From the NCBI GenBank assembly GCA_023244895.1, contig JAHFLL010000001.1, forward strand, positions 83,630 to 147,629: DNA of 64,000 bases, in the 5' to 3' direction. Below are positions 116 to 54,201 of this stretch, piece after piece (positions within the stretch are counted from its first letter, which is position 1; each line of letters opens with the position of its first letter). Made by a program: the position numbers and the translations under genes. This DNA is from Candidatus Liptonbacteria bacterium. GTDB taxonomy: Bacteria; Patescibacteriota; Minisyncoccia; UBA6257; 2-01-FULL-56-20. The notes under the pieces were generated by a model, which was not told the origin of the DNA, ran no database searches, and saw nothing but the letters and a program-made list of their open reading frames with translations.

Positions 116-541
116 ATGAAAAAAATTATTATCGGAGCGGTGGTGGTAGTGATTTTGGCAATTGGCGCGTACGCGTATTTTCAAAAGCAGAGCAACAACA
201 ATAATCCGGTCAGCGTCCCCGGGAATGGGCCGGGCGTGGAAGTAGGTAGCGCCCCAATTCCCGGAATAGCAGACGGTTCGGTGCCAGGTAAGCCGACTCA
301 GACGGATACATATACTTTGTCGGAAGTGGCAGCTCATGCCACTAAGTCTGATTGTTATACCGCGATACGCGGTTCAGTCTATAATCTGACCTCTTGGATA
401 AGCCAGCATCCGGGCGGAGCGAAGGCGATTGAGGGGTTGTGTGGGAAGGATGGAACGGATGCTTTTGTAAAACAGCACGGCGGGAAGAGTAAGCCGGAAG
501 AGACTTTGGCTGGGTTCAAGGTGGGGAAGATGGTGCAATAA
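116..541 (+). CDS. cytochrome b5-like heme-binding domain protein with N-terminal membrane anchor
   Basis: N-terminal hydrophobic helix, low-complexity linker, then cyt-b5 HPGG motif (ISQHPGGAKAIEGLCGKDGTDAF); A-rich start context with no SD. Confidence 0.6.
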   Translation: MKKIIIGAVVVVILAIGAYAYFQKQSNNNNPVSVPGNGPGVEVGSAPIPGIADGSVPGKPTQTDTYTLSEVAAHATKSDCYTAIRGSVYNLTSWISQHPGGAKAIEGLCGKDGTDAFVKQHGGKSKPEETLAGFKVGKMVQ

Positions 542-542
542 A

Positions 543-584
543 TAGAAGTTAGAAGGTAGAATCTAGAAGATGGTAGAGTGGAAA
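543..584 (+). repeat. heptad stop-codon array (TAGAAGT TAGAAGG TAGAATC TAGAAGA ...) directly after the stop codon
   Basis: TAG every 7 nt, four in phase, so stops rotate through all three frames; purine-rich units. Confidence 0.7.
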
Positions 585-4352: not shown

Positions 4353-4451
4353 TAGCGACCCGAATACCACAAATTACACACGAATTATCCGAATCCTTGC
4401 ATTTTAGCCTTATAGAGATTAGTATTTGGGTCATTCGGGTAAATTCGTAGA

Positions 4452-4889
4452 TTGGGATTAAATAATATGGCAAAAGAAATCAAAACAGTATTAAAAATTC
4501 AGTTAAACGCGGGCAAAGCTAATCCGGCTCCTCCGGTTGGCACCGCACTCGGTCCGCATGGCGTGAATATCGCCGACTTTTGCAAGCAATTCAACGATGC
4601 TACCAAGGACATGATAGGGGATGTGGTCCCGGCGGAAATCACGATTTATGCCGACCGCAGTTTCACCTTCAAGCTCAAGACCCCGCCCGTTTCCGCGCTC
4701 CTAAAGCAGATGGCCAAAGTTGATAAGGGCGCGGCCAATCCCTTAAAGGCCAAGGTTGGTAAAGTTTCTAAGGCTCAGGTTAAGGAGATTGCGGAGAGAA
4801 AGATGATTGATCTCAATACGGAGGACATAGAAGCGGCCATGAGAATAGTGGAGGGGACCGCTAGAAGTATGGGAATTACCGTGGAGTAG
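4452..4889 (+). CDS. rplK: 50S ribosomal protein L11
   Basis: [35 protein letters not shown] is the L11 signature. Confidence 0.95.
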
Positions 4890-6472: not shown

Positions 6473-7915
6473 ATGAAATACCAACCCACAATCGGATTAG
6501 AAATCCACTGCATCTTGCGAACACAGACCAAGATGTTTTGCGACTGCCCCAACGAGCCGGAGGAAAAGGAGCCCAACCGCAACACCTGCCCAGTTTGTCT
6601 GGGCCATCCCGGTACCTTGCCTACTATAAATCGCAAAGCGGTAGAGTCCGTTATCCGGGTGGGTCTGGCGCTTCAGGGTAAGATAAATCCGATTTGTAAG
6701 TTTGACCGTAAGAATTATTTTTATCCCGATTTGCCGAAGGGTTATCAAATTTCCCAATACGATCAGCCGCTAGTTCTGGGCGGCGAGCTGAATGGTATCC
6801 GCTTGCGCAGAATACATTTAGAAGAAGATGCGGCCAGGCTGCTGCATGAGATCTCCGGCCAAACCAAAAAGGGCGAGGCGAGTTTTGTGGATTTTAACCG
6901 CGCGAGCGTGCCCTTGATGGAGCTTGTGACTGAACCGGATTTAAGGAGCGCGGAAGAGACGGTAGAATTCGCGCGTGAGCTCCAAAGGATTTTGCGATAT
7001 TTGAAAGTATCGGACGCGGACATGGAGAAGGGGCATTTGCGCATTGAGGCAAATGTTAGTTTGAATATGGGTCCTAAGGTTGAGCTTAAAAATATTAACT
7101 CCTTTAAGGCGGTCGGTTCCGCGATTGCGTATGAACTGAAGAGGCAGGAGGAAGTTCTGGAGGGTGGAGGAACGGTCGCGCATGAGACACGCGGTTGGGA
7201 CGAAGTGAACCAGAAGAGCGTAAGTCAGCGTAGCAAGGAAGAAGCACAAGACTACCGTTATTTCCCGGAGCCGGATTTACCGCCATTTGAGACGGAGATT
7301 TTCAGCCCGGAAGAACTTCGTGGAGCCTTGCCGGAGTTGCCAGCCATGAAGCGTACCCGTTTCGCAAAAGAGTTCGGTTTGAGTCCCGACCAGGTCGCGC
7401 TCTTGGTGGACGACTTGGAACTATCGGAATATTTTGAAGAATGTTTAAGCGAGCTTGCCACGCGGGATGAATCAGCCTCGTCTACGGTTGAAAAGAGCAG
7501 TACCGTTTTACTCTTTAATTATTTAACTAGCGACCTGGCTGGCCTCTTGGCGGAAGGGGGCATAACTATCCGCAAATCCAAAGTCAAACCGGAACACCTG
7601 GCTCACTTAGTGGATTTAATCGTGGATGGAAAAATAATGAGCCGCCAAGCTAAAGATATTTTGAAGAAAGTTTTTGAAACCGGCACTGACCCGGAAGACG
7701 TTATGAAAGACGAGGGACTGGAGACCGTTTCGGATAACTCCGAGCTGGAAAAAGCGATTAAAGAAGTTATATATGAAAACCCGAAAGCGGTGGAAGATTT
7801 GCGCGCGGGCAAGGAGGCAAGCATGCAGTTCTTGATAGGAAAGTGTATGGGTAAGCTTCGCGGGCGGGGCAATCCGGCGACCATAAAAGAAGTTATAAGC
7901 AAAATTATTAAATAA
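6473..7915 (+). CDS. gatB: Asp/Glu-tRNA amidotransferase subunit B
   Basis: N-terminal GLEIHCIL...KMFCDCPN and a GatB/YqeY C-terminal domain. Confidence 0.9.
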   Translation: MKYQPTIGLEIHCILRTQTKMFCDCPNEPEEKEPNRNTCPVCLGHPGTLPTINRKAVESVIRVGLALQGKINPICKFDRKNYFYPDLPKGYQISQYDQPLVLGGELNGIRLRRIHLEEDAARLLHEISGQTKKGEASFVDFNRASVPLMELVTEPDLRSAEETVEFARELQRILRYLKVSDADMEKGHLRIEANVSLNMGPKVELKNINSFKAVGSAIAYELKRQEEVLEGGGTVAHETRGWDEVNQKSVSQRSKEEAQDYRYFPEPDLPPFETEIFSPEELRGALPELPAMKRTRFAKEFGLSPDQVALLVDDLELSEYFEECLSELATRDESASSTVEKSSTVLLFNYLTSDLAGLLAEGGITIRKSKVKPEHLAHLVDLIVDGKIMSRQAKDILKKVFETGTDPEDVMKDEGLETVSDNSELEKAIKEVIYENPKAVEDLRAGKEASMQFLIGKCMGKLRGRGNPATIKEVISKIIK

Positions 7916-9601: not shown

Positions 9602-11062
9602 CTAGAGCAGTTTCGCCGCCAGCTCCGCGATCTTGGAGCGAACGACATCGTGCATCGCTAGGTGAGCGAAACAGGGCTGGCCCTTGAATCGTTCCACGAC
9701 CTGCACTAGCCCGTTTGAGAGCGAGTTGATCTCGCTACGGTCAATCTGGTCGGGGTCGCCCGTGAGGATCACGCGCGAGCCCTCGCCCGCCCGCGTGAGC
9801 ACGAGCTTCATGTCCTCTTGAGTGAGGTTCTGCCCGTCGTCCACAATGATGACGGCTTCGTGGATGGAGCGACCGCGCAGATAGTTAATCGGCGCGATAT
9901 CAAGGGCGTGCGTTTGGAGCAGACTCTCGACAGTCGGATGTGTCGATACCGCTTCTCCTCTGGTCGGTTGATGTTCGCCGACCGAGTTGGTGAAGCGTGT
10001 CGGACCATGCAGTCGGCGCATGATGAAGTCGAGGTTGTCGATGATGGGCCTGGCCCAAGGGGCCATCTTGTCTCCCAGATCTCCCGGGAGAAAGCCCAGT
10101 TCACGGCCCGCCTCGGCGTTGAGGCGGTAGACTTCGATACGCGAAACCTTGTGGCTCCGGAGCATCTTGTAGGCCGACAGGAGCGCAATGAGCGTCTTCC
10201 CCGTGCCGGCGATGCCGCTCAGGCTGGTGATTAGGGTATGATCGTCCATGATCAGGTCGTGCGCACAGAACTGTTCTGCGTTACACGGTCCGAAGCGTTC
10301 TTCCAGCTTGGTGTTGACGCGACGCAAGTAGCCTGGGGTTTCGTGACTCTTGTAGATTCCCCACGCACTCTTGCCCGTGCCGGCGACACAGATCTCACAG
10401 CACTGGTTGGCCATGATCTTACTCACATCTGTGTAGTCGGCCAGGGCACTCACCGGGAGCCGTTGCTCGTGGTGCAGAGTGTTCAGCAACGCTGCCTCGC
10501 CCTCTGGCACCTCAATGCGCAGGCGTCCCGAATAGAATTTCTCGGGAGCCTCCACGGCCCGGTCGCTCCGATAGTCTTCGGCCACGACGCCACGCGCGCG
10601 AGCCTTCATCCGCATCGCGGCATCGCGGGTGACGAGGATGACCCGTTCGTCCGGATGCGCGACCTGGTAGTTGTCAGCCAACATGATAATCGCATCATCG
10701 GCGTAGTCTCGGTTGAATCCGGGCCACGCGCGAGACAGGTCCAGCCTGCCCGCGTCGAATCGCAGCAGTCCTCCGTTCAGAGGGATTCCGTGCTGTAGTT
10801 CGTCGAGAGAGGCCCGCGTCTGAATGTCGTCCAAGAACCTGACCACGTTGCGGGCAGTGTACCCGACACCGTTTGCGGCAGCACGCCGCCGATCAAGTTC
10901 TTGGAGTACGGGGAACGGTATGACAACGACGTTCCCGTTGACCAGGGATTGCACGATTTCGGGCACGGCCACCAGCACGCTGGTGTCCGTAACGTAGGTC
11001 TTCTTCCCTACGTTTCCCGCTTCGCCGCTTAGCATGGATTGCTCCTTCGGGTTTGCCAACAC
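9602..11062 (-). CDS. PIN domain / PhoH-like ATPase fusion (YlaK-like)
   Basis: N-terminal PIN-like region (YVTDTSVLV...VVIPFPVLQELD) and C-terminal PhoH P-loop (LSGIAGTGKTLIAL); strong SD GAAGGAGCAATCC-ATG; GC3-rich codons unlike the backbone. Confidence 0.8.
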   Translation of the reverse strand: MLANPKEQSMLSGEAGNVGKKTYVTDTSVLVAVPEIVQSLVNGNVVVIPFPVLQELDRRRAAANGVGYTARNVVRFLDDIQTRASLDELQHGIPLNGGLLRFDAGRLDLSRAWPGFNRDYADDAIIMLADNYQVAHPDERVILVTRDAAMRMKARARGVVAEDYRSDRAVEAPEKFYSGRLRIEVPEGEAALLNTLHHEQRLPVSALADYTDVSKIMANQCCEICVAGTGKSAWGIYKSHETPGYLRRVNTKLEERFGPCNAEQFCAHDLIMDDHTLITSLSGIAGTGKTLIALLSAYKMLRSHKVSRIEVYRLNAEAGRELGFLPGDLGDKMAPWARPIIDNLDFIMRRLHGPTRFTNSVGEHQPTRGEAVSTHPTVESLLQTHALDIAPINYLRGRSIHEAVIIVDDGQNLTQEDMKLVLTRAGEGSRVILTGDPDQIDRSEINSLSNGLVQVVERFKGQPCFAHLAMHDVVRSKIAELAAKLL

Positions 11063-11142
11063 TTAAGTTGGGAGGTCCGAGTGCTCGCCTAATACTCCTT
11101 TCCGAGGCTGTCATTTGGTTGGAATGTAAAGGCCTCTGCCCC

Positions 11143-11178
11143 GAATTATACCCTTATGTAAGTTCAGAAAACAGCTGC
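11143..11178 (-). promoter_or_regulatory. candidate sigma70 promoter for the PIN-PhoH gene (perfect TATAAT -10)
   Basis: minus-strand ...TTTTCTGAACTTACATAAGGGTATAATTCGGGG about 80 nt upstream of the SD. Confidence 0.4.
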
Positions 11179-14627: not shown

Positions 14628-16433
14628 TCACAAAGACTTCTCCTTGTATTCTTTCTCTATTTCCTCTGCCAATTTTTCTATTTTCATTTCTCCTACCTGT
14701 CCCTTCTTGTAATGCCTGATGCTTACCGTGTTCGTACCTTCTTCTTTTTCGCCAACAACTAAAACGTAGGGTATCTTTTCCATATCCGCGGTGCGGATTC
14801 TCTTGCCCAGAGTCTCGTTCGCGTCGCGCAATTCCACCCGGATATTTTTTTCGCGCATGGCCTCCGCCACTTTTTCGGCATACGCCGCGAACTTTTCTCC
14901 GACTGGCAGAATTGCGACTTGCACCGGCGCGAGCCAGAGAGGGAATGCGCCCGCGTAGCGCTCTATCAGGAATGCCATGGTGCGCTCAAAGCAGCCGATA
15001 GAGGAGCGGTGAATCACGATAGGCTGTTGTTCTTTGCCCTGCTCGTCGGTATAAACCAATTCAAAACGTTTTGGCATTACGAAGTCATACTGCACTGTAA
15101 AGGCGGTCTCTTCCTGGCCGCTGACCTTCTTCATCTGCACGTCAATCTTAGGACCATAGAACGCCGCCTCACCTTCCGCTTCAAAGAAGGGCGCTTTCAT
15201 TTCTTTGAGCACGCTACGCAAAACACCCTCCGCTTTTTCCCAGGCCTTGTCGTCCTTGTAGTATTTCTTGGAATCCTTGCGGTCGCCGAGCGATAGACGG
15301 TAGCGATAATCAACTCCCTTCTCCAAACCAAATACTTTATTAGCGTAATCTATCAGATCTAAAACCCGTTTTATTTCATCCTTAGCCTTTTCTGCGGGAA
15401 CGACAATATGCGCGTCCGCCAAGCAGAACATTCTTACCCTCATTAAGCCGGTCAGCTCACCGCTTTTTTCGTAGCGGAATTGGCTGGCTATCTCCGCGAT
15501 GCGCATAGGTAATTCGCGGTAACTACGCGGCTTGCTCTTATAAAGCATAAAGTGGTGTGGACAGGTCATGGGACGCAGTATTAATTGGTCGTTGTCCACC
15601 TGCATGACCGGATACATTGTATTTTTATAATAGGGGTAGTGTCCGGACTTCTGATAGAGTTCCACTTTCGCGAGCGGGGGAGTGATAACGTGCTGATAAC
15701 CCCACTTGGTTTCGGTTTCGTACACGAATTTTTCCAGCTCTTTTCTGATGACGGTGCCCTTGGGGGTGAGGAGCGGCAAGCCCTTGCCGACTATGTCGGA
15801 AAAAACAAACAGATCTAAATCCGCGCCCAGTTTGCGATGGTCTCGCTTCCTGGCTTCTTCCAGTCGCGCTACGCATTCCTCCAGCTCTTTCTTGCTGTTA
15901 AATGCCAAGCCGTAGATACGGGTCAGCATTTTTTTCTTTTCGTCGCCTCGCCAGTAAGCGCCGGCAATCTTCTCCAGCTTAAAACCGTGCGGGTCTATCT
16001 CGGCCGGGGGCAGGTCGTGTCCGCCTTTGCACAAATCTATAAATCCTCCGCAAGTGAAAAAAGTTAGAGTTTTTTTCTCGCGCGCGAATTCTTCCGCGAG
16101 CTCAATCTTATATTTATTCCAACCAAACTCTTTTTTGACCTCGCGCAGGGTTACGATTTTTTTAGTCCACTTGGTCCAACGGGGAAGCAGTTCCCGCATT
16201 TTAGCCTCAATCTTGGGTAGGTCCGCATCGGAAATAGTTTTTGACATCTCAAAGTCCTGGTAGAAGCCGTTTTCTACGGCTGGTCCGATCGCGTTCATAG
16301 AGCCGGGGTAGAGCTCGCGCACGGCGGCGGCCAAAAGGTGCGCCAAGGAATGGCGCACGCCTTCCAGTTGCAGTTCGCTGGAACTCTCCCTTGCCGGCTT
16401 GCTTGCTGATTTCTTTACGGATTGTTTTTTCAT
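14628..16433 (-). CDS. thrS: threonyl-tRNA synthetase
   Basis: class II core with an anticodon-binding domain; N-terminal editing/TGS region reduced; TGA stop. Confidence 0.9.
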   Translation of the reverse strand: MKKQSVKKSASKPARESSSELQLEGVRHSLAHLLAAAVRELYPGSMNAIGPAVENGFYQDFEMSKTISDADLPKIEAKMRELLPRWTKWTKKIVTLREVKKEFGWNKYKIELAEEFAREKKTLTFFTCGGFIDLCKGGHDLPPAEIDPHGFKLEKIAGAYWRGDEKKKMLTRIYGLAFNSKKELEECVARLEEARKRDHRKLGADLDLFVFSDIVGKGLPLLTPKGTVIRKELEKFVYETETKWGYQHVITPPLAKVELYQKSGHYPYYKNTMYPVMQVDNDQLILRPMTCPHHFMLYKSKPRSYRELPMRIAEIASQFRYEKSGELTGLMRVRMFCLADAHIVVPAEKAKDEIKRVLDLIDYANKVFGLEKGVDYRYRLSLGDRKDSKKYYKDDKAWEKAEGVLRSVLKEMKAPFFEAEGEAAFYGPKIDVQMKKVSGQEETAFTVQYDFVMPKRFELVYTDEQGKEQQPIVIHRSSIGCFERTMAFLIERYAGAFPLWLAPVQVAILPVGEKFAAYAEKVAEAMREKNIRVELRDANETLGKRIRTADMEKIPYVLVVGEKEEGTNTVSIRHYKKGQVGEMKIEKLAEEIEKEYKEKSL

Positions 16434-19455: not shown

Positions 19456-20316
19456 ATGAATTGGAGTATCAGAAAAACTCGCTCTCGGGGAGGGGGAGAA
19501 TCCTTGTCGGAGCGCAAGAATCAATCTTTGTCTGACCTGCAGAAAAAGAAATCTCGGCGCAAAAAAATTTTCTGGGCGGTGCTTTGGTTTCTATTTATCT
19601 TCACGGGGGCATGTCTGCTCGTGCACGGACTCATTTGGTCGTCTTGGTTTCAGATTAAGGAAGTAAACTACTTTGGGGTGGATCGCTCAAACGAGGAAGA
19701 AATTATGAATTACTTGGTCTCCGACATAGCCGGAGGGAGTTGGTTGCAAAGGGTATTAAGTTTTAAACATATCTTGGCCTGGCCCGCTCATGAGTCTTGG
19801 CAGAGACCCGTTTTTTTGCCAATCATTTCTAAAATAGAACTGGAACGCAACTTCTGGGATAGATCTTTAAACGTGACAGTTTCGGAATGGCAACCGCTTG
19901 GGATCTGGTGCTCCACGGGAGGGGACAAAGAAAAGTGCGGCTGGTTTAATAGCGACGGCTTGGTGATACAGAAGGCTCCGCTCGCGGAAGGCAGTTTAAT
20001 TCCGGTAGTGCGAGATGTCTCCGGGAAGGAGCTCAAGCTGGGTAAAAAAATCTTAGAGTCGGAAGAAAAAACAGCAAACCTACTTTCCGTTTTTAAGGTT
20101 CTGTTTGCGGAGCATATTCCAATCACGGAAGTACGTCTGGAGCGTAGCGCTACGGACGAGATAAAAGTTTTTCAGACGAACGGTCCGGAAATGTATTTTA
20201 GCTTGCGTTTTCCGGCCAACTTAACGCAGGGTCCAATTCACGCTTTGCGCGCGGAAGGCTGGGAAAATTTAACTTATTTGGATTTCAGGATAGAGAACAG
20301 AGTCTACTACAAATAG
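19456..20316 (+). CDS. FtsQ/DivIB-like cell division protein (POTRA-like)
   Basis: basic cytoplasmic N-terminus, one TM helix, then IKEVNYFGVDRSNEEEI POTRA-like start; located downstream of alr. Confidence 0.55.
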   Translation: MNWSIRKTRSRGGGESLSERKNQSLSDLQKKKSRRKKIFWAVLWFLFIFTGACLLVHGLIWSSWFQIKEVNYFGVDRSNEEEIMNYLVSDIAGGSWLQRVLSFKHILAWPAHESWQRPVFLPIISKIELERNFWDRSLNVTVSEWQPLGIWCSTGGDKEKCGWFNSDGLVIQKAPLAEGSLIPVVRDVSGKELKLGKKILESEEKTANLLSVFKVLFAEHIPITEVRLERSATDEIKVFQTNGPEMYFSLRFPANLTQGPIHALRAEGWENLTYLDFRIENRVYYK

Positions 20317-20355
20317 AAGTTAGTAGTTAGAAGTTAGAATCTAGAAAATAAGAGT
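20314..20355 (+). repeat. heptad stop-codon array TAGAAGT TAGTAGT TAGAAGT TAGAATC TAGAAAA TAAGAGT
   Basis: six consecutive 7-nt units each beginning with TAG/TAA, starting at the ftsQ-like stop codon. Confidence 0.8.
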
Positions 20356-20448
20356 CGCCGGCGAAGTGATAGAGAATGAAGTCGGTGGAGCGAAAACCAC
20401 GCCCCGCCTATTCTAATAACTTCTACTTTCTAAATTCCAGCTTCTGCT

Positions 20449-22434
20449 CTAGGGTAGGTGGTAAATAAACAAAGAAGTTCCCGCGCGTAGATCCCATTTG
20501 GGAATTGCGCCCATTCCAGAATCGGTGAGGGGGCGCTCGCTGGTTAGCCAGCGGTACTCATCTTCCGGTTTGCGCTCAAAATTATTTATGGTTGGCTGGA
20601 TAGAGCCTTGGATAGAGTTTGCCGCGAGCACCAGCCAATGTATGCCCTCCGCGCGCGGGTCACCCTTACTACTCCACCAACTTACCGCCTTATCTCCGAA
20701 GTAATATGGGATGTGGGATCCACCGAAATAATCAATCGCGAATTTATCAATTTGCTCGCCATGCTTTATGCCGGAACCGATAAATTGCTTACAGGAGCTA
20801 GGGCAACCCACACCCAAATTTGCATCACATTTAGTTTGCGCGCAGTGATTATATTCCACAATGACGTTCTTTAGCCGCAATAAATCTTGTCCCCAATCGT
20901 AGTTGGAATCGGTTACGTAGCGATAGCCGTTACTCGTCCCTCCCGCGACTGGGTTAAAATAGGAAAGGTAGCTGGGATAGGCGTAGGCAGTTTCAAGGCC
21001 GAACCAGACTATTAATATGGCAAGCACGTAGCGGGAGGTTTTGGCCGCGGGATGCGTTAGATGATGGCGTTGCCAACTGCTTGCAATCAGTAGGTATATG
21101 AAGGGTAGGGTTGGGAAAAGATGGCGGAAGCCTATATTGAGCGGGCTTCTTATGCTGTATAGCCAATATAGGACCACGAATAACAGAAGCGCGTTCTCCG
21201 TAAAGTTATTATCAATCCAAGCGAATATCTTGCGCCAGAAACCGGTATTTTGAGGCACTTCCTTACGAATATTTTTCATTCGCCAAATACCGAAAACCAC
21301 AGCGCCCAAAATCAGAAGTAAGACAGGCAAGGACTCTTTCATGAGATATACCAGCGGGAAGTAAGCATGCGAGCCAGAAGCGGAAACATGCCCCATAAAA
21401 TAATTATTATTCCCACCAGCGGAACGTTGCATGACCATTAACACTCCCAAAGAGTATTCCGCTAGCGGTCGGGTAATGCGATTACCGGACATCCAGATGG
21501 TCATATCCGCCAAGCAGCGCGTGGGTTGGCAAATTTTACCCGGGGGAGTAGGACCGTTCGCGAAGGAGCGCAAGGTGGAGGTCGTGTCCGTCACCTGTTC
21601 CTCAATTGGATAATTATAGGTAAATAGTCCATAGACAGGGTAGACCAGAAGAACAAATCCCGTGACGAACAAGATGACCGTCCGACCAAAATAAGAATAG
21701 GAAATGGAGAAAAATCTTTTCCAGGAGAATCCTTCCCCCTGCGCGATAGACAGATTTAGCACCTTCAAGATTATAAGTATGACGAAGTAGGGTAGGAGCA
21801 GTACCGCGGAGAACTTAGAGAGTTGCGCTAGGCCAAAGGCCAGTCCCGCGAAGAACACATTCTTGCCGGATGGATTGGCGAGAAAGTGCAAAAAAAAGTA
21901 GGTCGCGACCGCTATCCCAAGCGCCGCGGCGATGTCGGTTGTGACATAGTGCCCATGGCTCAGAAAATTCGGTGATAGGCCTATCAGAAATGTCGGCAGA
22001 AGGGCCCATTTACCGCCTACCATTTCTTTGCTCCAACGATAGATAAACCAGATGAGTAGTAGTGTCAGAAATATCGGACCCAAGCGTGCCAGAAAAATCA
22101 GGAGCGGGGAATTGTTGCCGGATTCAAAAATAAACATTCTGCCTAGATCCCACTGAGCATTTATCTCACTCGTCCACTTGGAGCTCTCGGTGGGAAACCG
22201 TGCGTCCATGAATAAGAGAGGTATTCCCGAAAGCGCTTTTAAGAGGGGCGGATGCTCCGGGTTCAGACGATAGTCCAAGTAGCGCACGTAACTATAGCCG
22301 GAAGGAATATGGGCCAGCTCGTCCATAGTAAGAGAGTCGGCACGGGCCAAGACGAGCATCACGCTCGCGGAGATTAATAAAATAGCTAAGAGCCCCCAGG
22401 CACTCCACTTTTCCAATATTTTATTCATATACAC
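20449..22434 (-). CDS. GT-C family glycosyltransferase (PMT_2 / ArnT-like), polytopic membrane protein
   Basis: DELAHIPSGYSY...NPEHPPLLK matches the PMT/ArnT family signature; about 12 TM segments; Cys-rich C-terminal periplasmic domain. Confidence 0.7.
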   Translation of the reverse strand: MYMNKILEKWSAWGLLAILLISASVMLVLARADSLTMDELAHIPSGYSYVRYLDYRLNPEHPPLLKALSGIPLLFMDARFPTESSKWTSEINAQWDLGRMFIFESGNNSPLLIFLARLGPIFLTLLLIWFIYRWSKEMVGGKWALLPTFLIGLSPNFLSHGHYVTTDIAAALGIAVATYFFLHFLANPSGKNVFFAGLAFGLAQLSKFSAVLLLPYFVILIILKVLNLSIAQGEGFSWKRFFSISYSYFGRTVILFVTGFVLLVYPVYGLFTYNYPIEEQVTDTTSTLRSFANGPTPPGKICQPTRCLADMTIWMSGNRITRPLAEYSLGVLMVMQRSAGGNNNYFMGHVSASGSHAYFPLVYLMKESLPVLLLILGAVVFGIWRMKNIRKEVPQNTGFWRKIFAWIDNNFTENALLLFVVLYWLYSIRSPLNIGFRHLFPTLPFIYLLIASSWQRHHLTHPAAKTSRYVLAILIVWFGLETAYAYPSYLSYFNPVAGGTSNGYRYVTDSNYDWGQDLLRLKNVIVEYNHCAQTKCDANLGVGCPSSCKQFIGSGIKHGEQIDKFAIDYFGGSHIPYYFGDKAVSWWSSKGDPRAEGIHWLVLAANSIQGSIQPTINNFERKPEDEYRWLTSERPLTDSGMGAIPKWDLRAGTSLFIYHLP

Positions 22435-26839: not shown

Positions 26840-26885
26840 AGGCCCCCATGGCGAATCGCCCATCGGGGGCCTTTCGCTTTATGTT
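26840..26885 (+). terminator. intrinsic terminator AGGCCCCC(17-nt loop)GGGGGCCT then TTCGCTTTATGTT
   Basis: perfect 8-bp GC stem followed by a T-rich tail. Confidence 0.55.
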
Positions 26886-26950
26886 CTATGTTGCGTATTC
26901 TATACTCCATGTTGCGTATTTCCTGTTCCATATTTCTATTGTATTATTAG

Positions 26951-27254: not shown

Positions 27255-27851
27255 ATGAAAGAAAAGATAAAACACATAGCCAAAGAGTATAAGCTCAAGT
27301 TAATCCTCGGCGCTTTGGTTCTGGCGGTGATTCTGGGGATAGGGCTAGTCTCCTTAAATCGCTATCCGATTGTAACCGTAAACGGCAGCCCCATCAGCGC
27401 CAACCGTTTCTGGAGAAACTACAAGGGCGCGGTCAAGTATTACGAAGGCGCCAAGAAATCCATGTCGCCGGACCAGCTGCCGACAAGCACGCCTAGCTCT
27501 ATGGAGATGCAGGCGGAAGTTATGACTCAGCTTATAGAGGCAGAGCTGATTTCCCAGGGGGCGGAAAAAGAGATAGGCAAGGATTTGGATTTTCTGGTTC
27601 AAAATAAAATTTCTCGCTATGAGAATAATCAGTCTCTGGCGCAGGCAGCGGGTTCCCTGTACGGAATGACCTACCAGGAGTTTCAAGATGAGGTAATGAT
27701 CCCCCAGGCGGAAAAAGAGATTTTGGTTGGCCGTTTTTATATGAGCGGAGATAATTTTGAGGAATGGTTTAGGGAACTCAAAAAATCAGCCTCCGTTAAT
27801 ATTTTTTCCAAAGGCTTTCGCTGGGACGGGGAGAGGGTCCGCCCCAATTAG
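27255..27851 (+). CDS. SurA N-terminal domain-like periplasmic chaperone
   Basis: signal anchor followed by YPIVTVNGSPISANRFW. Confidence 0.45.
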   Translation: MKEKIKHIAKEYKLKLILGALVLAVILGIGLVSLNRYPIVTVNGSPISANRFWRNYKGAVKYYEGAKKSMSPDQLPTSTPSSMEMQAEVMTQLIEAELISQGAEKEIGKDLDFLVQNKISRYENNQSLAQAAGSLYGMTYQEFQDEVMIPQAEKEILVGRFYMSGDNFEEWFRELKKSASVNIFSKGFRWDGERVRPN

Positions 27852-27883
27852 AAGTCAGAATATAGAAGTTGGAATTTAGAATG
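27849..27883 (+). repeat. heptad stop array TAGAAGT CAGAATA TAGAAGT TGGAATT TAGAATG
   Basis: TAG every 14 nt in 7-nt units; abuts the tRNA-Gly 3' end. Confidence 0.7.
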
Positions 27884-29640: not shown

Positions 29641-29676
29641 TTTGTAGTGTAATTTATCCCTGTTAACTTCTAACTT
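29641..29676 (-). repeat. heptad stop array (minus strand: TAGATAG AAGTTAG AAGTTAA) after the permease stop
   Basis: same AAGTTAG unit as the arrays at 543 and 20314. Confidence 0.6.
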
Positions 29677-30450
29677 CTATCTATGAGGTTTAAGCAGGCT
29701 CAGAATAAATAAGCCGGTTGCTACTACCACTACTGTAGCGCCCAATTCCAAGGAGTATGTGCTTGCTATCAAATATCCCAGAACCATAGCTACTATTCCG
29801 AGCAGCGAAGACAGAACCAAGAATCTATTAAGAGAGTGGGTGAGTTGGCGAGCGGTAGCAGCCGGAATGATTATGAGCGATCCCACTAGGAGCGCGCCCA
29901 AGAACCTAAGACTTACTAATATGGCGAGCCCGAAGAGAAGCAGGAACCAAAGATTTACCCGGTCTACATTGACTTTAGCGGATGCGGCCAAGTCCGGAGA
30001 AAAAAGCGTGAGGATAAGCTTGTGCCGCAGCTGCCAGAGCGCGAAGATGATAAAGAGGCTGACCAAGCTGCCGAACCAGAATTCCGCCGACGATAATTTT
30101 CCGAATCCGCCGAAGAGAGCATCGATTAGTTCTTCGGTGGAGTTTATGAGGAGCGCGCCCAGGGCTACGGAGCTCGCGAATATCACGCCGATAACCGCTT
30201 CCGTGGTCAGGCTAGTTTTCTTCTGCAGCTGCCAGATTATCAGTATTCCCAAAAGAAGTGTCAGTCCCGCTCCAAACAGGGGATTTATTTTCCAAAGCAG
30301 GGCCAGTCCCAATCCGGGAATGGCGATATGAGACATAACGTCACCCGCTAGAATGGTTCGCTTCATAAGCGCGAACGCGCCGACTAGTCCCGCGGCCGCG
30401 GCAGCGATAAGCGCTAAGATAAGGGGTAAGGCTTGATCGTATAGCATCAT
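29677..30450 (-). CDS. metal (Zn/Mn) ABC transporter permease, ABC-3 family
   Basis: 8-TM ABC-3 (ZnuB/TroD-like) profile. Confidence 0.8.
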   Translation of the reverse strand: MMLYDQALPLILALIAAAAAGLVGAFALMKRTILAGDVMSHIAIPGLGLALLWKINPLFGAGLTLLLGILIIWQLQKKTSLTTEAVIGVIFASSVALGALLINSTEELIDALFGGFGKLSSAEFWFGSLVSLFIIFALWQLRHKLILTLFSPDLAASAKVNVDRVNLWFLLLFGLAILVSLRFLGALLVGSLIIIPAATARQLTHSLNRFLVLSSLLGIVAMVLGYLIASTYSLELGATVVVVATGLFILSLLKPHR

Positions 30451-37399: not shown

Positions 37400-37432
37400 T
37401 AATATATAACCAATAATAAATAACGGGGAGAT
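37397..37432 (+). repeat. heptad TAA array (TAA TAATATA TAACCAA TAATAAA TAACGGG)
   Basis: TAA at 37400, 37407, 37414 and 37421, exactly 7 nt apart. Confidence 0.7.
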
Positions 37433-39146: not shown

Positions 39147-40286
39147 GTGAAGCCTCTGCGTTTCTGGAAACCAAAAGAAAGTTTTTTGATCTTGCAAGTC
39201 TCGCCGGAACGAATAAACGGCTTACTTTTGGGTTTAAGCGCGGATAAAAAAATATATGCGCGGAGATATTTTGAAGATACCAGCTGGACCAATCTTGCCG
39301 CTCGCACCGACTTAAAACACTTAGTGAAGAATGTGATTGTCGCCGCCGATTCCAGCCTGTCTTATACGGCGACCATACCAGTCGCGCTCAATAGGGAAAA
39401 CCCAGAAGAACCTCTGGCCGCTCCGGAGCTGGAAAATCTTTTATCTCAAGCGGTGGGCAGGGTTTTTAATCAATGCCGCCAAGAGGCTGGTAGATATTTA
39501 GAGATGGACGACTTGGACGTAGTGTTGGTTGGCAGTAGGGTGATCAATTTCAAAATTGACGGTCACCACGTGCTAAACCCGCTGGAATTTTCCGCTCGCA
39601 AAGTGGAGGCCGTGCTAGAGCTGACGCTTACGGTTCGCTCCGTGTTGGATGGAGTCAAAAGCATACTTAAGAACAAGCCCAATTTCTATTTCACCGAAAC
39701 CGCCCGGGCAGAACTAGCAGTTTTAGCGCGAGATCATAAATCTCCCCTTAGTCTCCTATACTTGGGTGAGCAGAGGTCTATTTGTCTCATTATGGAACCT
39801 TCTCCGGTCGGACAAATATTCACAAGGCATCCCTTAAAATGGAGCTCTCTTTCTATCGCGCAAGCCTTAACTAAGGAGTGGGGAGTAGACAGCGGAGTTG
39901 CGCATCGCATATACCATCTCTTCTTGAAATCAAAGATGTCCGAGCGCGGCTCAAAGACTGTGCGTAAGTCCATGGAGCCAGTCAGAATATCCTTAATGAA
40001 GGCGATAGACAGCGTCCACCCTCGCGGCCAAGTTTACGTAGATTCGCCCCTGCCTCTTTTTATGGAGATGCCCTTGCGTCGGGGCAAGCTTAGCATTGAG
40101 GAGGTGTCGGTGGGAGAGTTGGCCAAACACTTCGGTTTTTCAATAGACGAAGAAGGTTGGCCGATCTCTGTTTCGCAGACCATGAGATATCTCGCGCCAT
40201 TTTGGGAATATTACTACGACCGCAGTGATTCTACCGTGAATCGTTGGCTAAAAAGACACCTGAACTGGCTAGGCGCGCAAATATAA
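39147..40286 (+). CDS. hypothetical protein, possibly a degenerate actin-like (PilM/FtsA-like) fold
   Basis: no ATP-binding motifs seen; assignment very tentative. Confidence 0.4.
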   Translation: MKPLRFWKPKESFLILQVSPERINGLLLGLSADKKIYARRYFEDTSWTNLAARTDLKHLVKNVIVAADSSLSYTATIPVALNRENPEEPLAAPELENLLSQAVGRVFNQCRQEAGRYLEMDDLDVVLVGSRVINFKIDGHHVLNPLEFSARKVEAVLELTLTVRSVLDGVKSILKNKPNFYFTETARAELAVLARDHKSPLSLLYLGEQRSICLIMEPSPVGQIFTRHPLKWSSLSIAQALTKEWGVDSGVAHRIYHLFLKSKMSERGSKTVRKSMEPVRISLMKAIDSVHPRGQVYVDSPLPLFMEMPLRRGKLSIEEVSVGELAKHFGFSIDEEGWPISVSQTMRYLAPFWEYYYDRSDSTVNRWLKRHLNWLGAQI

Positions 40287-40335
40287 GAGTGGTTAGAAAC
40301 TAAAATCTAGAAGATAGAAGTTGGAATATGGAAAG
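40284..40335 (+). repeat. heptad stop array TAGAAAC TAAAATC TAGAAGA TAGAAGT TGGAATA TGGAAAG
   Basis: stops at 40284, 40294, 40301, 40308 and 40315 cover all three frames. Confidence 0.75.
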
Positions 40336-42340: not shown

Positions 42341-42562
42341 ATGAACGGTAATAACAAAGCTAGTTTAGCGCGCGCAGAGGGGATTGTAGAGGAAGCGTTG
42401 CCCGGGCTCATGTTTCGGGTCAAGCTTCAAGACGGACAGACCCTTTTGGCGCATCTTTCCGGTAAAATGCGATTGCATCGCATTCGGGTTTTGCCCGGAG
42501 ATAGGGTGTCCTTAGAAATGAGTCCGGACGGTGGGCGAGGTAGGATTAACAGAAGGCTATAG
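42341..42562 (+). CDS. infA: translation initiation factor IF-1
   Basis: S1-like fold ([25 protein letters not shown]...[14 protein letters not shown]). Confidence 0.85.
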
Positions 42563-42650
42563 TCGTTAGTAGTTAGAACTTAGCTGTTAAATACGTAGAA
42601 GCAAAGAATCTCCTAAGTCCTAAAGACTAATCACTAAATACTAATCAACA
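42560..42650 (+). repeat. entire infA-rpmJ spacer built of 7-nt units carrying TAG (x4) then TAA (x6)
   Basis: TAG at 42560, 42567, 42574 and 42581; TAA at 42588, 42614, 42621, 42628, 42635 and 42642. Confidence 0.8.
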
Positions 42651-45775: not shown

Positions 45776-46196
45776 AAATATGGAGAAAACAGCAGCTAAA
45801 ACTCATTCCGGAAAATACTTTGAAGGCGTAGGCCGTCGCAAGACCGCGATCGCGCGAGTCAAGGTTCAAAAGGGCAAGGGCGGACTTACGGTAAACGGCA
45901 AGCCGGTTGCGGAATTTTTCACCGTCCCGCGTTTGCTTAAAACGGCTCTCGCCCCAATTGAATCTTTGAAGTTGGATGAAAGTATCAGCGCCAGCGCCAA
46001 AGTGAGCGGTGGGGGCATAATGGCTCAAGCAGAGGCTGTGCGCCACGGATTGGCTTTAGGGTTGTCTATGATGGACGAAGAGCTGAGGCCGCGTCTCAGA
46101 GCCTTTGGATACATGACTCGTGATTCTAGGATGGTAGAGCGCAAGAAGTACGGCTTGAAGAAAGCCCGCCGCGCTCCACAGTGGGCAAAACGTTAA
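45768..46196 (+). CDS. rpsI: 30S ribosomal protein S9
   Basis: C-terminal KKYGLKKARRAPQWAKR. Confidence 0.9.
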   Translation: MIKNMEKTAAKTHSGKYFEGVGRRKTAIARVKVQKGKGGLTVNGKPVAEFFTVPRLLKTALAPIESLKLDESISASAKVSGGGIMAQAEAVRHGLALGLSMMDEELRPRLRAFGYMTRDSRMVERKKYGLKKARRAPQWAKR

Positions 46197-46200
46197 AACT

Positions 46201-46227
46201 AAAAACCCCGCTTCTGGCGGGGTTTTT
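46201..46227 (+). terminator. intrinsic terminator AAAAACCCCGC ttct GGCGGGGTTTTT
   Basis: classic hairpin plus T-run after rpsI. Confidence 0.8.
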
Positions 46228-46234
46228 AGTTAGT

Positions 46235-46400: not shown

Positions 46401-46436
46401 GTGCTGCCTAGAGTCTTCCGGGAAACTGAGTAGGAG

Positions 46437-48327: not shown

Positions 48328-48338
48328 GGTGAAGTTGC

Positions 48339-53127: not shown

Positions 53128-54201
53128 CTAGATATTAAGCATCCCGTCCGCCTTCATTTTATATTTTTTCTTGCGCAGAATATTCAGATAACCCGCGGCC
53201 GCAATCATGACCGCGTTGTCGGTATTGTATTTGTGCTCCGCCACGAAAAATTCCAGACCATTTTCGTTTGCCCTTTGGGATAATCTCTCCCGCAACATCT
53301 TATTGGCCGCCACTCCGCCGGAAAGAAGAATGGACTGGGCGTTAAAATCGCTGGCGGCGCGCATCGTCTTTTTAGTAAGCACGTCTATTGCGGCACCGGA
53401 GAACGAACCGGCCACCTCTTGTTTAGAATACTTCTTATGATCCCGAACGTAATAAAGCACGGAAGTTTTAAGCCCGGAGAAGCTGAAATCATAATCCTTT
53501 GTGCCTATCATCGGGCGCGGGAAGTTTATTTTATCCTTCCAGCTCTTAGGGAGTTTTTCCACCAGCTTTTGTATCTCCGGTCCGCCGGGATAGGGGAGTT
53601 TTAATACGCGTGCCACCTTGTCAAATGCCTCGCCCACCGCATCATCCCTGGTTTCGCCTAAGCGTTTCCAGGATTTAAGATTTTTTAGGAGGAGCAGGAC
53701 GGTATGTCCGCCGCTCACGATCAGCGCAACCGCGGGGAATATTTTTGATATCTGATTTTTGACATTTGAATTTACAGTTTTATTCGGGAGAAGAAAACTG
53801 TAGAGATGTCCCTCCAGATGATTTGCACCGATGACGGGCTTTTTATATTTCTTACCTAATTCTTCCGCGAAGGTGATGCCCGCCCAGAGTGCCGGTTCTA
53901 GGCCCGGGCCGACTGTCACGGCTATAGCATCTATAGAATCTAGAAGCTGGAAGTTAGAAGATAGTAGTTTCTTAAGTAGGATGGGAAGGTTTTTGATATG
54001 TTCTCTTTTGGCTAAATTTGGGACCACGCCTCCAAAAGGACGGTGAATAGCTATCTGAGACGAGACCACTTCGCGTAATACCTCAAACTTAGGCCCGGTT
54101 TTAAGGTTGCCAGAAGCTTGTACTAGCGCCAGAGCCGTTTCGTCGCAGGATGTTTCTATTCCTAAGATAAGCATAACGCTATGAAATTTAACCGAATCCA
54201 A
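53128..54201 (-). CDS. tsaD: tRNA N6-adenosine threonylcarbamoyltransferase TsaD
   Basis: ILGIETSCDETALAL and a Kae1/TsaD HxxxH metal site. Confidence 0.9.
   Translation of the reverse strand: MDSVKFHSVMLILGIETSCDETALALVQASGNLKTGPKFEVLREVVSSQIAIHRPFGGVVPNLAKREHIKNLPILLKKLLSSNFQLLDSIDAIAVTVGPGLEPALWAGITFAEELGKKYKKPVIGANHLEGHLYSFLLPNKTVNSNVKNQISKIFPAVALIVSGGHTVLLLLKNLKSWKRLGETRDDAVGEAFDKVARVLKLPYPGGPEIQKLVEKLPKSWKDKINFPRPMIGTKDYDFSFSGLKTSVLYYVRDHKKYSKQEVAGSFSGAAIDVLTKKTMRAASDFNAQSILLSGGVAANKMLRERLSQRANENGLEFFVAEHKYNTDNAVMIAAAGYLNILRKKKYKMKADGMLNI

Follow-up and report, generated by a model that had tools for sequence, protein, structure and literature searches.

The heptad array at 20314-20355 lies in the spacer between two convergent genes, within a window of 64,000 nucleotides of Candidatus Liptonbacteria DNA. 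The features of the locus, and the other copies of the array in the window, are listed in Table 1. The upstream ORF has orthologues at 57–59% identity in Candidatus Liptonbacteria. The initial annotation labeled it ftsQ-like, a label for which no support was found, as the translation had no Pfam match at E≤0.1 and no PDB relative. POTRA_1/FtsQ domains, which would mark an FtsQ/DivIB protein, were likewise not found at this threshold. The same annotation took the gene's own stop codon as the first unit of the array, and the TAG at 20314-20316 does terminate ORF 19456..20316. It also counted six heptads. Six 7-nt units are indeed present when the sequence is read in register, but the sixth (TAAGAGT) is degenerate and the element is a five-unit module. 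At 20314-20339 TRF reported 3.7 copies of a period-7 repeat, matching at 89%. A dimer typical of the family, TAGAATC-TAGAAAA, occupies 20335-20348.

Table 1. Features of the locus under study and further copies of the array in the window.
Feature	Position	Strand	Description	Sequence or source
Upstream ORF	19456..20316	+	286 aa, N-terminal TM-like segment, TAG stop at 20314-20316	ORF list, translation
Arm A (array under study)	20314..20355	+	Five units plus a degenerate sixth	TAGAAGT TAGTAGT TAGAAGT TAGAATC TAGAAAA + TAAGAGT
GC-rich hairpin	20384..20408	.	Between the arms; fold predictions	GGTGGAGCG-AAAACCA-CGCCCCGCC
Arm B	20412..20446	-	Diverged inverted partner	CAGAAGC TGGAATT TAGAAAG TAGAAGT TATTAGA
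PMT_2-family glycosyltransferase gene	20449..22434	-	Convergent, TAG stop at 20449-20451	
Copy	543..577	+	1 nt past TAA stop of Cyt-b5 ORF 116..541; GC hairpin 593-622 downstream	
Copy	27849..27883	+	Five units, ending TAGAATG; first TAG is stop of SurA_N-like gene; adjoins minus-strand tRNA-Gly	
Short copy	29652..29679	-	First TAG is stop of ABC-3 permease gene; occupies 36-nt spacer ahead of next gene	
Copy	40294..40335	+	8 nt past stop of ORF 39147..40286	
Diverged copy	42560..42594	+	At infA TAG stop	TAGTCGT TAGTAGT TAGAACT TAGCTGT TAAATAC
Copy	53934..53968	+	Antisense inside tsaD coding sequence; encodes variable loop	KKLLSSNFQLLDS

The array (arm A) has a diverged inverted partner (arm B), which starts 5 nt past the stop codon of the convergent gene. 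The loop between the arms is 56 nt long and holds only the GC hairpin, which predicted folds place at the tip of a long imperfect hairpin that can form from either strand. The two arms together folded at -41.6 kcal/mol on the plus strand (z = -1.8), a marginal gain over shuffles, and at -44.7 kcal/mol on the minus strand (z = -3.1). An intrinsic terminator was not recognized at 20384-20408, where the hairpin is followed by TATTCTAA, a weak T-run, and the consensus terminator scan makes no call. The same convergent-gene architecture was found in loci L012, L055 and L100. At the orthologous site of the closest syntenic relative found (L002) the spacer is 23 nt, with zero arrays in 17 kb. The sole other assembly shown (L001) is identical. 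Judging from these sequences, the array at 20314 is probably a lineage-specific gain.

Heptad arrays elsewhere in the window

Heptad arrays are the largest direct-repeat families of the window. Eight intergenic copies were found in 74 kb of this genome, along with one copy antisense within coding sequence. TAGAAGT-like arrays number 9 in the window vs 0.53 expected, and TAG/TAA-phased runs of at least 5 heptads never appeared in 50 shuffles, in which the maximum was 4. At ≤2 mismatches GTTAGAATCTAGAA had 8 matches vs 0.45 expected, and at ≤1 mismatch TAGAAGTTAGAA had 12 vs 0.37 expected; both counts were reached by 0/100 shuffles. Chance or low complexity as the origin of the array is ruled out by these shuffles. 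The initial annotation had proposed a dispersed family at gene 3' ends rather than chance, and copies at 543, 20446 (minus strand), 27849, 29679 (minus strand), 40294 and 42560 agree with that proposal. The four units that it quoted for 543-584, TAGAAGT TAGAAGG TAGAATC TAGAAGA, are also correct and occupy 543-570. The tie to gene 3' ends is supported, with four window copies that begin on the stop codon itself and three others ≤10 nt from one. Copies of the family are also found at start codons in the opposite orientation, and one lies antisense in tsaD.

The sites at 543 and 20314 resemble each other only within the array, which rules out a longer mobile element common to both. The hairpin at 593-622, near the first of these sites, is called by the terminator scan on the minus strand only. 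A second heptad run, TAA-phased, was observed at 42614-42648 and extends to the start of rpmJ. At the variable positions the window copies carry GT vs TC/AA in the metagenome consensus, and are thus diverged. Neither the window nor any of 15 related loci contained a known RNA family.

Stop codons in the window also have a 7-nt signature. A TAG lies exactly 7 nt past the stop codon in 8/63 genes and 14 nt past it in 5/63, vs about 1 at other offsets. TAG itself is unusually common as a stop codon (27/63 vs 5 for TGA).

A five-heptad module in Parcubacteria

The array belongs to a family of discrete modules, each of about 35 bases and about five heptads, and is not an open-ended array of stop codons. 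The module has an invariant AGAA core, and the last two bases of each unit are variable. Units of the form TGGAAnn and CAGAAnn occur in other copies, and the conserved core is AGAA rather than the stop triplet. The module is found in many groundwater Parcubacteria (CPR bacteria), often with the dimer TAGAATC-TAGAAAA. Three TAGAANN units followed by TAG (TAGAANNTAGAANNTAGAANNTAG) matched at least 120 loci, with ~16 Patescibacteria among the matches listed. A 19-mer (TAGAATCTAGAAAATAGAA) gave at least 120 metagenome matches, and among those listed the loci range from 30 to 64% GC and have unrelated flanks. We infer that thousands of relatives of the module exist, because each of two collection scans gave at least 120 matches. 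For a 14-mer (TAGAATCTAGAAAA), 111 kb of CPR loci contained 5 occurrences and 744 kb of other phyla none.

Statistics on unit number and pairing were obtained from the arrays in loci among the metagenome matches listed. Among 222 arrays, 152 have five units; the others have 3 (20 arrays), 4 (23), 6 (21), 7 (5) or 11 (1), and shuffled loci yielded zero arrays. The units have positional identity, the last unit being TAGAAT in 80% of copies in the metagenome loci listed. An inverted partner lies ≤90 nt away in 108/192 modules (56%), with the TAGAAT ends towards the loop. Solitary modules (44%) cannot form a hairpin, and predicted folds leave a single module unstructured and without self-complementarity. 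In paired modules the match between arms at variable positions was 0.31 vs 0.40±0.02 for shuffled partners, which speaks against hairpin covariation. Since the arms are less alike than shuffled partners, selection for a perfect stem is disfavored.

Position relative to genes was examined for 107 arrays from genomes other than this one. In 43/107 the array start coincides with the end of a sense ORF of ≥100 codons, compared with 6% at random positions, and in 16/107 the opposite end of the array coincides with the end of an antisense ORF. Modules are found equally in the pyrimidine orientation beside start codons. Unpartnered modules show no enrichment for canonical terminators (6/84 vs 5% at random positions). 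A promoter reading, with the last unit TAGAAT as a -10 box, was dropped because start codons lie 0–3 nt downstream in many loci and because modules occur in both orientations.

One could view the array as an all-frame translational stop, in which TAGs spaced 7 nt apart cover frames 0, +1 and +2 and would halt read-through or frameshifted ribosomes before a terminator or the next gene. The excess of TAG at +7 and +14, the frequent use of TAG as a stop codon and the presence of stops as units one to three in most copies of the window all suit this reading. We nevertheless consider it very unlikely. The stop triplet is not what is conserved, with TGG or CAG replacing TAG in many units, and the pyrimidine orientation by start codons is just as common. 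Stop-free families such as GGGAATC behave alike, and selection on off-frame stops past a gene would be very weak.

Slippage during replication might instead have produced a functionless heptanucleotide microsatellite that is tolerated only outside genes because of its stop codons. Heptamers are cited as the commonest long simple-sequence repeats in prokaryotes, and a slippage origin has been suggested for them (Mrazek 2007, as cited in PMC4679880). Many matches outside CPR, among those listed, are perfect repeats such as TAGAAGC x16. The intergenic DNA of the window has a general period-7/14 signal, the 20314 array has a period-14 substructure that suggests block duplication, and the syntenic relative is without arrays. 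Against this stand the sharp five-unit mode in place of a broad spectrum, the position-specific unit identity, and one 19-mer shared by genomes of such different GC content with unrelated flanks. At orthologous sites such as L161/L227 and L182/L183 the flanks have diverged but the module cores remain intact. Systematic inverted pairing and the coupling to PF05635 genes described below also argue against it, and we regard a microsatellite as unlikely.

Arrays beside PF05635 genes

Sequence comparisons physically link PF05635 genes with heptad arrays in four or more phyla. PF05635 is the family of the 23S-rRNA-IVS protein, an Avd-like pentamer of the four-helix-bundle type. Loci collected with the array that contain a PF05635 gene are L036, L078, L080, L152, L162, L167, L196 and L226, and the PF05635 ORF lies between the module arms in L152, L167, L196, L226, L244, L246 and L250. 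When loci were collected with the protein instead, heptad arrays flanked the PF05635 gene in 4/4 CPR and 4/4 Bacteroidota loci. The Bacteroidota loci count as about one event because all four are orthologous, between czcA and czcC. Of 16 PF05635 flanks, 9 had a period-7 score of at least 0.68, a level reached by 9% of the 112 flanks of other genes (p = 3e-8).

The gap between the module and the PF05635 start codon is 0–25 nt, and the Bacteroidota arrays that flank PF05635 have 15–17 units. The heptad itself varies with the PF05635 subfamily, the types being TAGAAnn, TAGGGnn, GGGGATT, CTAATGA, TGGAAGC and GGGAATC. In Xanthomonas the start codon of XCC0516 is covered by a GGGAATC repeat according to a published repeat table (Rehm et al. 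2015, PMC4692102). XCC0516 is a PF05635 protein whose structure, PDB 2GSC, has 5 chains. The link to PF05635 was not noted in that study (Rehm et al. 2015, PMC4692102). No PF05635 gene was found in the ~74 kb examined (the window, L001 and L260) of the 840,672-bp contig. For this reason the link to a cassette is, in this genome, one of family resemblance only.

A rival reading, which we consider less likely than not, treats the modules as putative binding sites at which each subunit of a pentameric PF05635 (Avd-like) protein would contact one AGAA core. RNA or DNA would encircle the ring much as the trp leader RNA encircles TRAP. Bound next to a stop or start codon, the protein would regulate its own gene and the flanking ones at the level of translation, termination or processing. 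The strong mode of five units agrees with the five chains of 2GSC and with Avd, a positively charged barrel that is pentameric and "similar to S23 ribosomal proteins" and for which an Avd-binding RNA exists (10.1101/2023.10.23.563531). Modules that reach the protein's own start codon, and a heptad that shifts with the subfamily, are also consistent with a binding site. So is the preservation of cores while variable positions drift and arm complementarity is not maintained. The absence of a PF05635 gene from the 74 kb of this genome weighs against it, as do the other unit numbers found elsewhere (the 15–17 in Bacteroidota and a preferred 4 in Xanthomonas). Modules occur in both orientations to transcription, which is easier to reconcile with DNA binding, or with none, than with binding to RNA. 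A PF05635 binding site overlaps with the explanation preferred below and does not exclude it.

A broader proposal is speculative, and we would sooner bet against it than for it. Bacterial heptanucleotide repeat families may be the cis-elements of PF05635 proteins, such that each subfamily travels with its own inverted heptad arrays and binds them as a pentameric ring. If so, the TAGAAnn type, the GGGAATC type of Xanthomonas and the GGGGATT and CTAATGA types of cyanobacteria and Bacteroidota would all be cis-elements, and perhaps STRR and TAACTGA repeats as well. Dispersed "empty" modules would be a regulon or a selfish repeat population. A function would be gained for the very large PF05635 family, which is without a known role outside DGRs, and for repeats unexplained since 1990.

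Proposed origin and known systems

In our preferred explanation, to which we assign a probability of roughly 60%, the array at 20314-20355 is a copy of a dispersed Parcubacteria module whose members are the arms of an IVS-like cassette family that seeds "empty" copies in spacers. Three forms of the module occur: solitary modules, inverted pairs round a short loop, and inverted pairs with a PF05635 gene inside. The last has the architecture of an rRNA intervening sequence, and the modules are therefore read as arms of an IVS-like cassette. The family would have seeded "empty" copies into short intergenic spacers, and the pair at 20314-20355 and 20412-20446, between two convergent genes, would be one such empty pair. 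A module gives a stop codon to any ORF that enters it because the 7-nt period sets TAG in all three frames, and here it is the 286-aa ORF that receives its stop codon in this way. The arms and the central GC hairpin are predicted to form a long imperfect hairpin of ~130 nt. Its most plausible role would be to punctuate the two transcripts, by acting as a barrier or terminating structure or by offering a processing site of the RNase III type, as rRNA IVS do. Most likely, then, the array belongs to an IVS-like cassette family in which it serves as a stem arm or as a protein site, and here it also supplies a stop codon. The data directly establish the sequence, its place in the family, the size of the module, its habit of pairing, its placement relative to genes and, in other genomes, its coupling to PF05635 genes; cassette origin, any function at the RNA level and any protein binding are what we infer.

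Short heptamer repeats near gene ends are already on record from cyanobacteria, Xanthomonas and Beggiatoaceae, with no mechanism attached, and the abundant PF05635 proteins have no assigned function outside DGRs. What the window adds is a sharply defined five-heptad module in a CPR lineage; tracing it into other genomes ties heptad arrays physically to PF05635 genes across four or more phyla. Two descriptive puzzles may thereby become one hypothesis, in which a pentamer binds flanking heptads and paired modules are cut or used as transcript ends. For the annotation of Parcubacteria, the module accounts for many genes that end in TAG followed by TAGAA repeats, for spacers without ordinary terminators or ribosome-binding sites, and for assembly fragmentation around such genes. 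Searches of the literature for the array sequence itself and for CPR intergenic repeats gave no match, and the module was compared with known systems. Its nearest counterparts are the heptameric repeat families found by stop codons in Xanthomonas, Nostoc and Beggiatoaceae, together with the rRNA intervening sequences.

The REP/BIME elements of enterobacteria and pseudomonads are extragenic, ~35 nt long, present in hundreds of copies, single or in inverted pairs, and lineage-specific. They sit at 3' ends and inside operons. Each REP unit forms an imperfect palindrome headed by a conserved GTAG and is tied to a RAYT transposase. The TAGAA module, in contrast, is a direct heptad repeat without a hairpin of its own, and the gene associated with it is PF05635. 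Membership in REP/BIME was rejected because the single module lacks self-complementarity and is unstructured in folds.

The RNA sites of HutP and TRAP resemble the module in having NAG triplets at a fixed short period, which is 7 nt for HutP. These sites are bound by a ring-shaped oligomer beside a terminator (PMC2425495). HutP binds three XAG motifs with a 7-nt period (U498, U505 and U512) beside a GC-rich terminator stem just past the hutP stop codon (PMC2425495). By analogy the array could be an antitermination site, at which a ring protein on UAG triplets with 4-nt spacing, upstream of a GC-rich terminator stem, decides whether transcription stops. Besides the HutP precedent, the sites at 543 and 20314 favor this, both being UAG-N4 repeats followed by a GC hairpin. 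However, HutP requires a second XAG site on the same strand 12–17 nt downstream. At 20314 the first XAG set is present but the second arm is its pyrimidine complement. Most modules have no nearby GC terminator, and no HutP-like protein was found among the 19 window ORFs (of ~63) scanned with Pfam. HutP and TRAP sites also belong to a single operon leader, whereas the TAGAA elements are multi-locus and without a second same-strand site. We regard an antitermination site of the HutP/TRAP type as highly improbable.

The GGGAATC repeats of Xanthomonas and the GGGGAYT repeats of Nostoc (Rehm et al. 2015, PMC4692102) are, like the TAGAA module, dispersed intergenic arrays of 7-nt units. They too strongly prefer a fixed unit number, 4 there vs 5 here, and they too form frequent convergent inverted pairs, 70–75 per genome. 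The repeat type of these G-rich heptameric families is kept between related species (Rehm et al. 2015, PMC4692102). The TAGAA unit differs in being A-rich with a TAG, in having a CPR bacterium as host and in having no G-tracts, and it is thus without G-quadruplex potential. Its units are also heterogeneous with positional identity, unlike those of the Rehm families.

The TAACTGA repeats of Beggiatoaceae, Cyanobacteria and Bacteroidetes (MacGregor 2015, PMC4679880) and the cyanobacterial STRR heptamers contain forward stop codons, which limits their overlap with gene ends to a few units. TAACTGA repeats share with the module their tiny spacers, their position a few nt from start codons without a Shine-Dalgarno sequence and their patchy phyletic spread. 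A protein-binding role has been suspected for them (MacGregor 2015, PMC4679880). Unlike the module they have 2–6 copies without a fixed number and are mostly forward and upstream of start codons. Inverted pairs are rare among them (169 direct sets and one indirect repeat in BOGUAY; PMC4679880) whereas they dominate for the TAGAA module.

The 23S rRNA IVS with a 23S_rRNA_IVP or "S23p" ORF resembles the module in that an inverted-repeat stem encloses either a PF05635 ORF (~115–130 aa) or nothing. IVS are cleaved by RNase III and have a patchy, horizontal spread, and 23S_rRNA_IVP ORFs occur in CPR rRNA insertions (bioRxiv 10.1101/2024.02.27.582315). TAGAA elements lie between protein-coding genes rather than in rRNA helices, their heptad stems have mismatched variable positions, and the 20314/20446 pair, unlike an ORF-bearing IVS, encloses no ORF. 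As with IVS, the distribution of TAGAA elements is sporadic and seemingly horizontal.

Copies of the array in the window and the convergent locus

The initial annotation had described six consecutive heptads starting on a stop codon, and the sequence confirms this: TAG 20314 is the stop of ORF 19456..20316, and is supplied by the array itself. It had also proposed that this array and that at 543 belong to a dispersed family and are not due to chance. A consensus scan of the window identified 9 such arrays against 0.53 expected, while the two search strings of the initial annotation returned 8 matches (0.45 expected) and 12 matches (0.37 expected). Phased TAG/TAA runs of at least five units occurred 0 times in 50 shuffles. 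The 20314 and 543 sites are both beyond chance. The proposed tie to gene 3' ends also held, with window copies at 20314, 27849, 29679 (minus strand) and 42560 starting on TAG stops. A TAG was found exactly 7 nt past the stop codon in 8/63 genes and 14 nt past it in 5/63, other offsets giving about 1.

Repeat features of the window. Coordinates are window positions.
Feature	Position	Strand	Description
Arm A	20314-20355	+	TAGAAGT TAGTAGT TAGAAGT TAGAATC TAGAAAA TAAGAGT
GC hairpin	20384-20408		GGTGGAGCG/CGCCCCGCC
Arm B	20412-20446	-	Starts 5 nt past stop of convergent PMT_2 gene
Copy at Cyt-b5-domain ORF	543-577	+	1 nt past TAA stop; 543-570 reads TAGAAGT TAGAAGG TAGAATC TAGAAGA
Copy	27849-27883		First TAG is stop of SurA_N-like gene; adjoins tRNA-Gly
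Copy	29652-29679	-	First TAG is stop of ABC-3 permease gene
Copy	40294-40335		8 nt downstream of a stop
Copy	42560-42594		Starts at infA TAG stop, in infA-rpmJ spacer
Five-unit TAGAA-type array	53932-53994		Antisense in tsaD CDS 53128..54201 (-); encodes LLKKLLSSNFQLLDS, TsaD variable linker/loop
Second dispersed intergenic repeat	4426-4456 (-), 57915-57945, 60457-60492		GCGACCCGAATCTACGAAC/TGCATCCGAATGA
Other period-7/14 arrays	55443-55472, 56919-56946, 37389-37424, 42614-42648		Units TGACATT/TGAAATT (-), TTTTGAA, TAAATAACCAATAA, TAAGTCC TAAAGAC TAATCAC
21-nt tandem repeat	26881-26931		ATGTTCCATGTTGCGTATTCC, 2.4 copies, just upstream of DivIC-like gene 26951..27253

Copies in the source genome have 4, 5, 4, 5, 6 and 5 units and are alike only within the arrays, similarity stopping at the array edges. 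A further 10 kb of the same genome added one copy, in the infB/rbfA spacer, oriented opposite to transcription. Because TGGAATT and CAGAAGC units exist, the constant part of the units is (T/C)(A/G)GAA, not the stop triplet; that the heptads act as an all-frame stop signal is very improbable. The array inside tsaD may be a module captured by the coding sequence. Over 53 nt it shows 72% complementarity to 20393-20445. The period-7/14 autocorrelation of intergenic DNA persists after removal of the TAGAAGT arrays.

The 63 ORFs of the window end in TAA (31), TAG (27) or TGA (5), making TAG unusually common and TGA rare for ~49% GC. TGA is probably a stop codon in the source genome, since it ends a tRNA-synthetase-like ORF, 14628..16433 (PF00587 tRNA-synt_2b, PF03129 HGTP_anticodon). 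Cumulative GC skew peaks at ~48-50 kb, where genes change from mostly plus to mostly minus; together these features at ~46000-50000 form the pattern expected at a replication terminus.

At the 20314 locus the array is paired with an inverted copy (arm B) around the GC hairpin, between two convergent genes. Folding of this region gave a long imperfect hairpin for each strand (plus, -41.6 kcal/mol, z = -1.8; minus, -44.7 kcal/mol, z = -3.1). The GC hairpin is without a good T-run and was not called by the consensus terminator scan. The local pair would putatively act on the transcripts of both convergent genes as a barrier or a processing stem. The label 'ftsQ-like' for the upstream ORF is unsupported, because searches found no Pfam or PDB relative; its protein has a 57%-identical orthologue annotated Candidatus Liptonbacteria. 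In a syntenic relative (L002) gene order is kept, the spacer at the 20314 site is only 23 nt, and 17 kb of sequence contains no such array. This makes the arrays a gain specific to the lineage and not a conserved feature of the spacer.

A five-heptad module and its distribution

A metagenome scan with the 19-mer TAGAATCTAGAAAATAGAA gave at least 120 matches, with fewer than ~10 expected by chance. Many of the listed matches come from 0.1-um groundwater fractions; GC of the loci ranges from 30 to 64%, and almost all flanks are unrelated. These loci contained 222 arrays, of which 20, 23, 152, 21, 5 and 1 had 3, 4, 5, 6, 7 and 11 units, respectively; shuffled loci contained 0. Positional identity was evident in arrays other than the seeds: unit 1 has T, G or A as its first base, units 2-4 are TAGAA(A)n, and unit 5 is TAGAAT in 80%. 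An inverted partner lies at most 90 nt away in 108/192 modules, and the TAGAAT ends face a loop of 0-34 nt. The outer end of the module adjoins a gene boundary: a stop codon in sense, in many cases the first TAG itself, or, 5-10 nt off, the start codon of an opposite-strand gene. Tiny spacers between co-directional genes are filled by most of the elements, which occur in both orientations to transcription. The array at 20314 is a member of this dispersed five-heptad family. The preferred unit number, positional identity, pairing and placement at gene boundaries show that the module does not behave as an open-ended slippage repeat, and a neutral origin by slippage is an improbable account of it.

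At the two variable positions, paired arms resemble each other less (0.31) than shuffled partners do (0.40 +/- 0.02), a typical pair having one arm of the TAGAATC/TAGAAAA type and the other of the TAGAAAG/TAGAAAA type. It thus seems to be the AGAA cores, and not a perfect stem, that are under selection. Canonical terminators were not enriched at unpartnered modules (6/84 vs 5% at random positions). Loops of module pairs often begin with ACGAA beside TAGAAT, and TACGAA runs occur in loci L135 and L150. In another locus, L238, a ~95-nt sequence (the module plus ATAAGAAGTGGAAAATAATATTTGTATCATTTGTATATTAGTATCGATACA) occurs twice, inverted, at 6516-6610 and 11050-11150. The 4.5-kb segment between the copies contains three large ORFs, and each copy lies between the stop of an inner gene and the start of an outer gene.

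Scanning one genome per species with TAGAANNTAGAANNTAGAANNTAG identified at least 120 loci; among those listed were ~35 from Bacteroidota, 17 from Cyanobacteria, 16 from Patescibacteria and 10 from Acidobacteriota. Many of the listed matches outside the CPR (Parcubacteria/Patescibacteria) are perfect microsatellites, while the Parcubacteria matches are heterogeneous, as in the window, and have the dimer TAGAATC-TAGAAAA in common. This dimer, found in arm A at 20335-20348, was counted 5 times in CPR loci (111 kb) and 0 times in loci of other phyla (744 kb). With gene models of related loci taken from simple ORF calls, the array start coincides with the end of a sense ORF (100 codons or longer) in 43/107 arrays of other genomes (6% at random positions), and the far array end with that of an antisense ORF in 16/107. 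Jorgensenbacteria, Staskawiczbacteria and Azambacteria loci are built like the 20314 locus, with convergent genes and two opposed arrays, and with stop codons inside the arrays. The TAGAATC-TAGAAAA module was also seen in a MAG labelled Nanoarchaeota (L022; 2450-2514, 3152-3178, 3412-3517), on a contig binned as a DPANN archaeon that has a second inverted pair made of AGTTGAA heptads. Either the element is shared or the contig is a mis-binned CPR contig.

Module pairs around PF05635 genes

Several array-seeded loci have a small ORF inside the loop of the module pair, in the order upstream stop, (TAGAAnn)5, ATG...stop of the small ORF, (nnTTCTA)5, downstream ATG. The small ORF is PF05635, 23S_rRNA_IVP (E = 5.6e-31), with a weak bAvd match. 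The same arrangement with other units was found in a Sulfurovum locus (TAGAAAT), an unclassified bacterium (TAGAACA/TGTTCTT) and a Flavobacteriales locus. Module pairs thus enclose PF05635 genes in related genomes. No PF05635 gene is present within the ~74 kb of the source genome examined.

The CPR subfamily of PF05635 has 893 members at E<=1e-10; the 120 listed among them have Yanofskybacteria, Parcubacteria or Patescibacteria names, many being on ~1 kb contigs. In protein-seeded CPR loci, a sense module runs from the upstream stop to the PF05635 start codon in 4/4 independent contexts, and an antisense module follows the gene in at least 3 of these. In Ekhidna, Nonlabens, Winogradskyella and Cyclobacteriaceae (L256-L259), a Bacteroidota subfamily has a conserved place in a heavy-metal efflux operon, with czcA (ACR_tran) on one side and czcC (OEP) on the other. 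Inverted heptad arrays (TAGAGGT/TAGAAGT or TGGAAGC type; 17 units at most) flank the gene in 4/4 genera, the four loci being orthologous and hence not independent. More distant PF05635 genes have other heptads: CTAATGA (a Nostocales locus), nnTAGGG/nnCGCTA, AATCCCC (the reverse complement of GGGGATT) and ACGAATT. Among protein-seeded loci, 9/16 PF05635 flanks had a period-7 score of at least 0.68 vs 9% of 112 other gene flanks (Mann-Whitney p = 3e-8).

ACGAA-containing heptads (ACGAATT/AAGAATT) flank the PF05635 gene of L215. On different CPR contigs (L140, L162, L189, L193, L231, L243, L244) the order dockerin-like gene (ending ...Y(Y/W)WTG*), module, PF05635 gene recurs, the PF05635 copies of L189 and L243 looking truncated or frameshifted.

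A single relative by sequence came from the PDB: 2GSC, a five-chain entry for XCC0516 of Xanthomonas campestris. Repeat #15 (GGGAATCGGGAGTGGAGAATCGGGAATC) of Rehm et al. 2015 (supplementary table, PMC4692102) is 6 nt away from XCC0517 and overlaps the XCC0516 start codon. It is an independent published case of heptads at a PF05635 gene, unremarked by those authors.

Interpretation and comparison with known systems

We suggest that the modules are repeats forming the arms of an intervening-sequence (IVS)-like cassette family, which would leave empty copies in spacers. To this reading, combined with a role at the 20314 site that is passive or structural, we assign a probability of about 0.6. rRNA IVS are stems cut by RNase III that sometimes enclose a PF05635 ORF and show a patchy spread, and CPR rRNA insertions contain 23S_rRNA_IVP ORFs (bioRxiv 10.1101/2024.02.27.582315). 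Avd, a homologue, is a barrel-shaped pentamer of positive charge, described as 'similar to S23 ribosomal proteins', that makes contact with a specific RNA element (10.1101/2023.10.23.563531). The AGAA cores may be candidate sites read by a pentameric PF05635 protein. Such putative binding, compatible with the cassette-arm reading, is a tentative and rather unlikely proposal.

HutP binds XAG triplets with a 7-nt period beside a terminator stem starting after the hutP stop codon (PMC2425495). HutP needs a second same-strand site, and there is none at the 20314 locus; a HutP-like site is very improbable. No Rfam family matches the module, and its sequence had no match in the literature searched. 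G-rich heptamer families in Xanthomonas and Nostoc either overlap stop codons or lie on the coding strand no more than 50 bp from them; they prefer a fixed number of units (4), and convergent pairs are frequent (PMC4692102). TAACTGA repeats provide stops in forward orientation, have a patchy distribution, and occupy tiny spacers, adjoining start codons without Shine-Dalgarno sites (MacGregor, PMC4679880). Given its likeness to the Rehm and MacGregor repeats, the TAGAA module is one more such heptamer family, in a new host group and with a sharper module definition.
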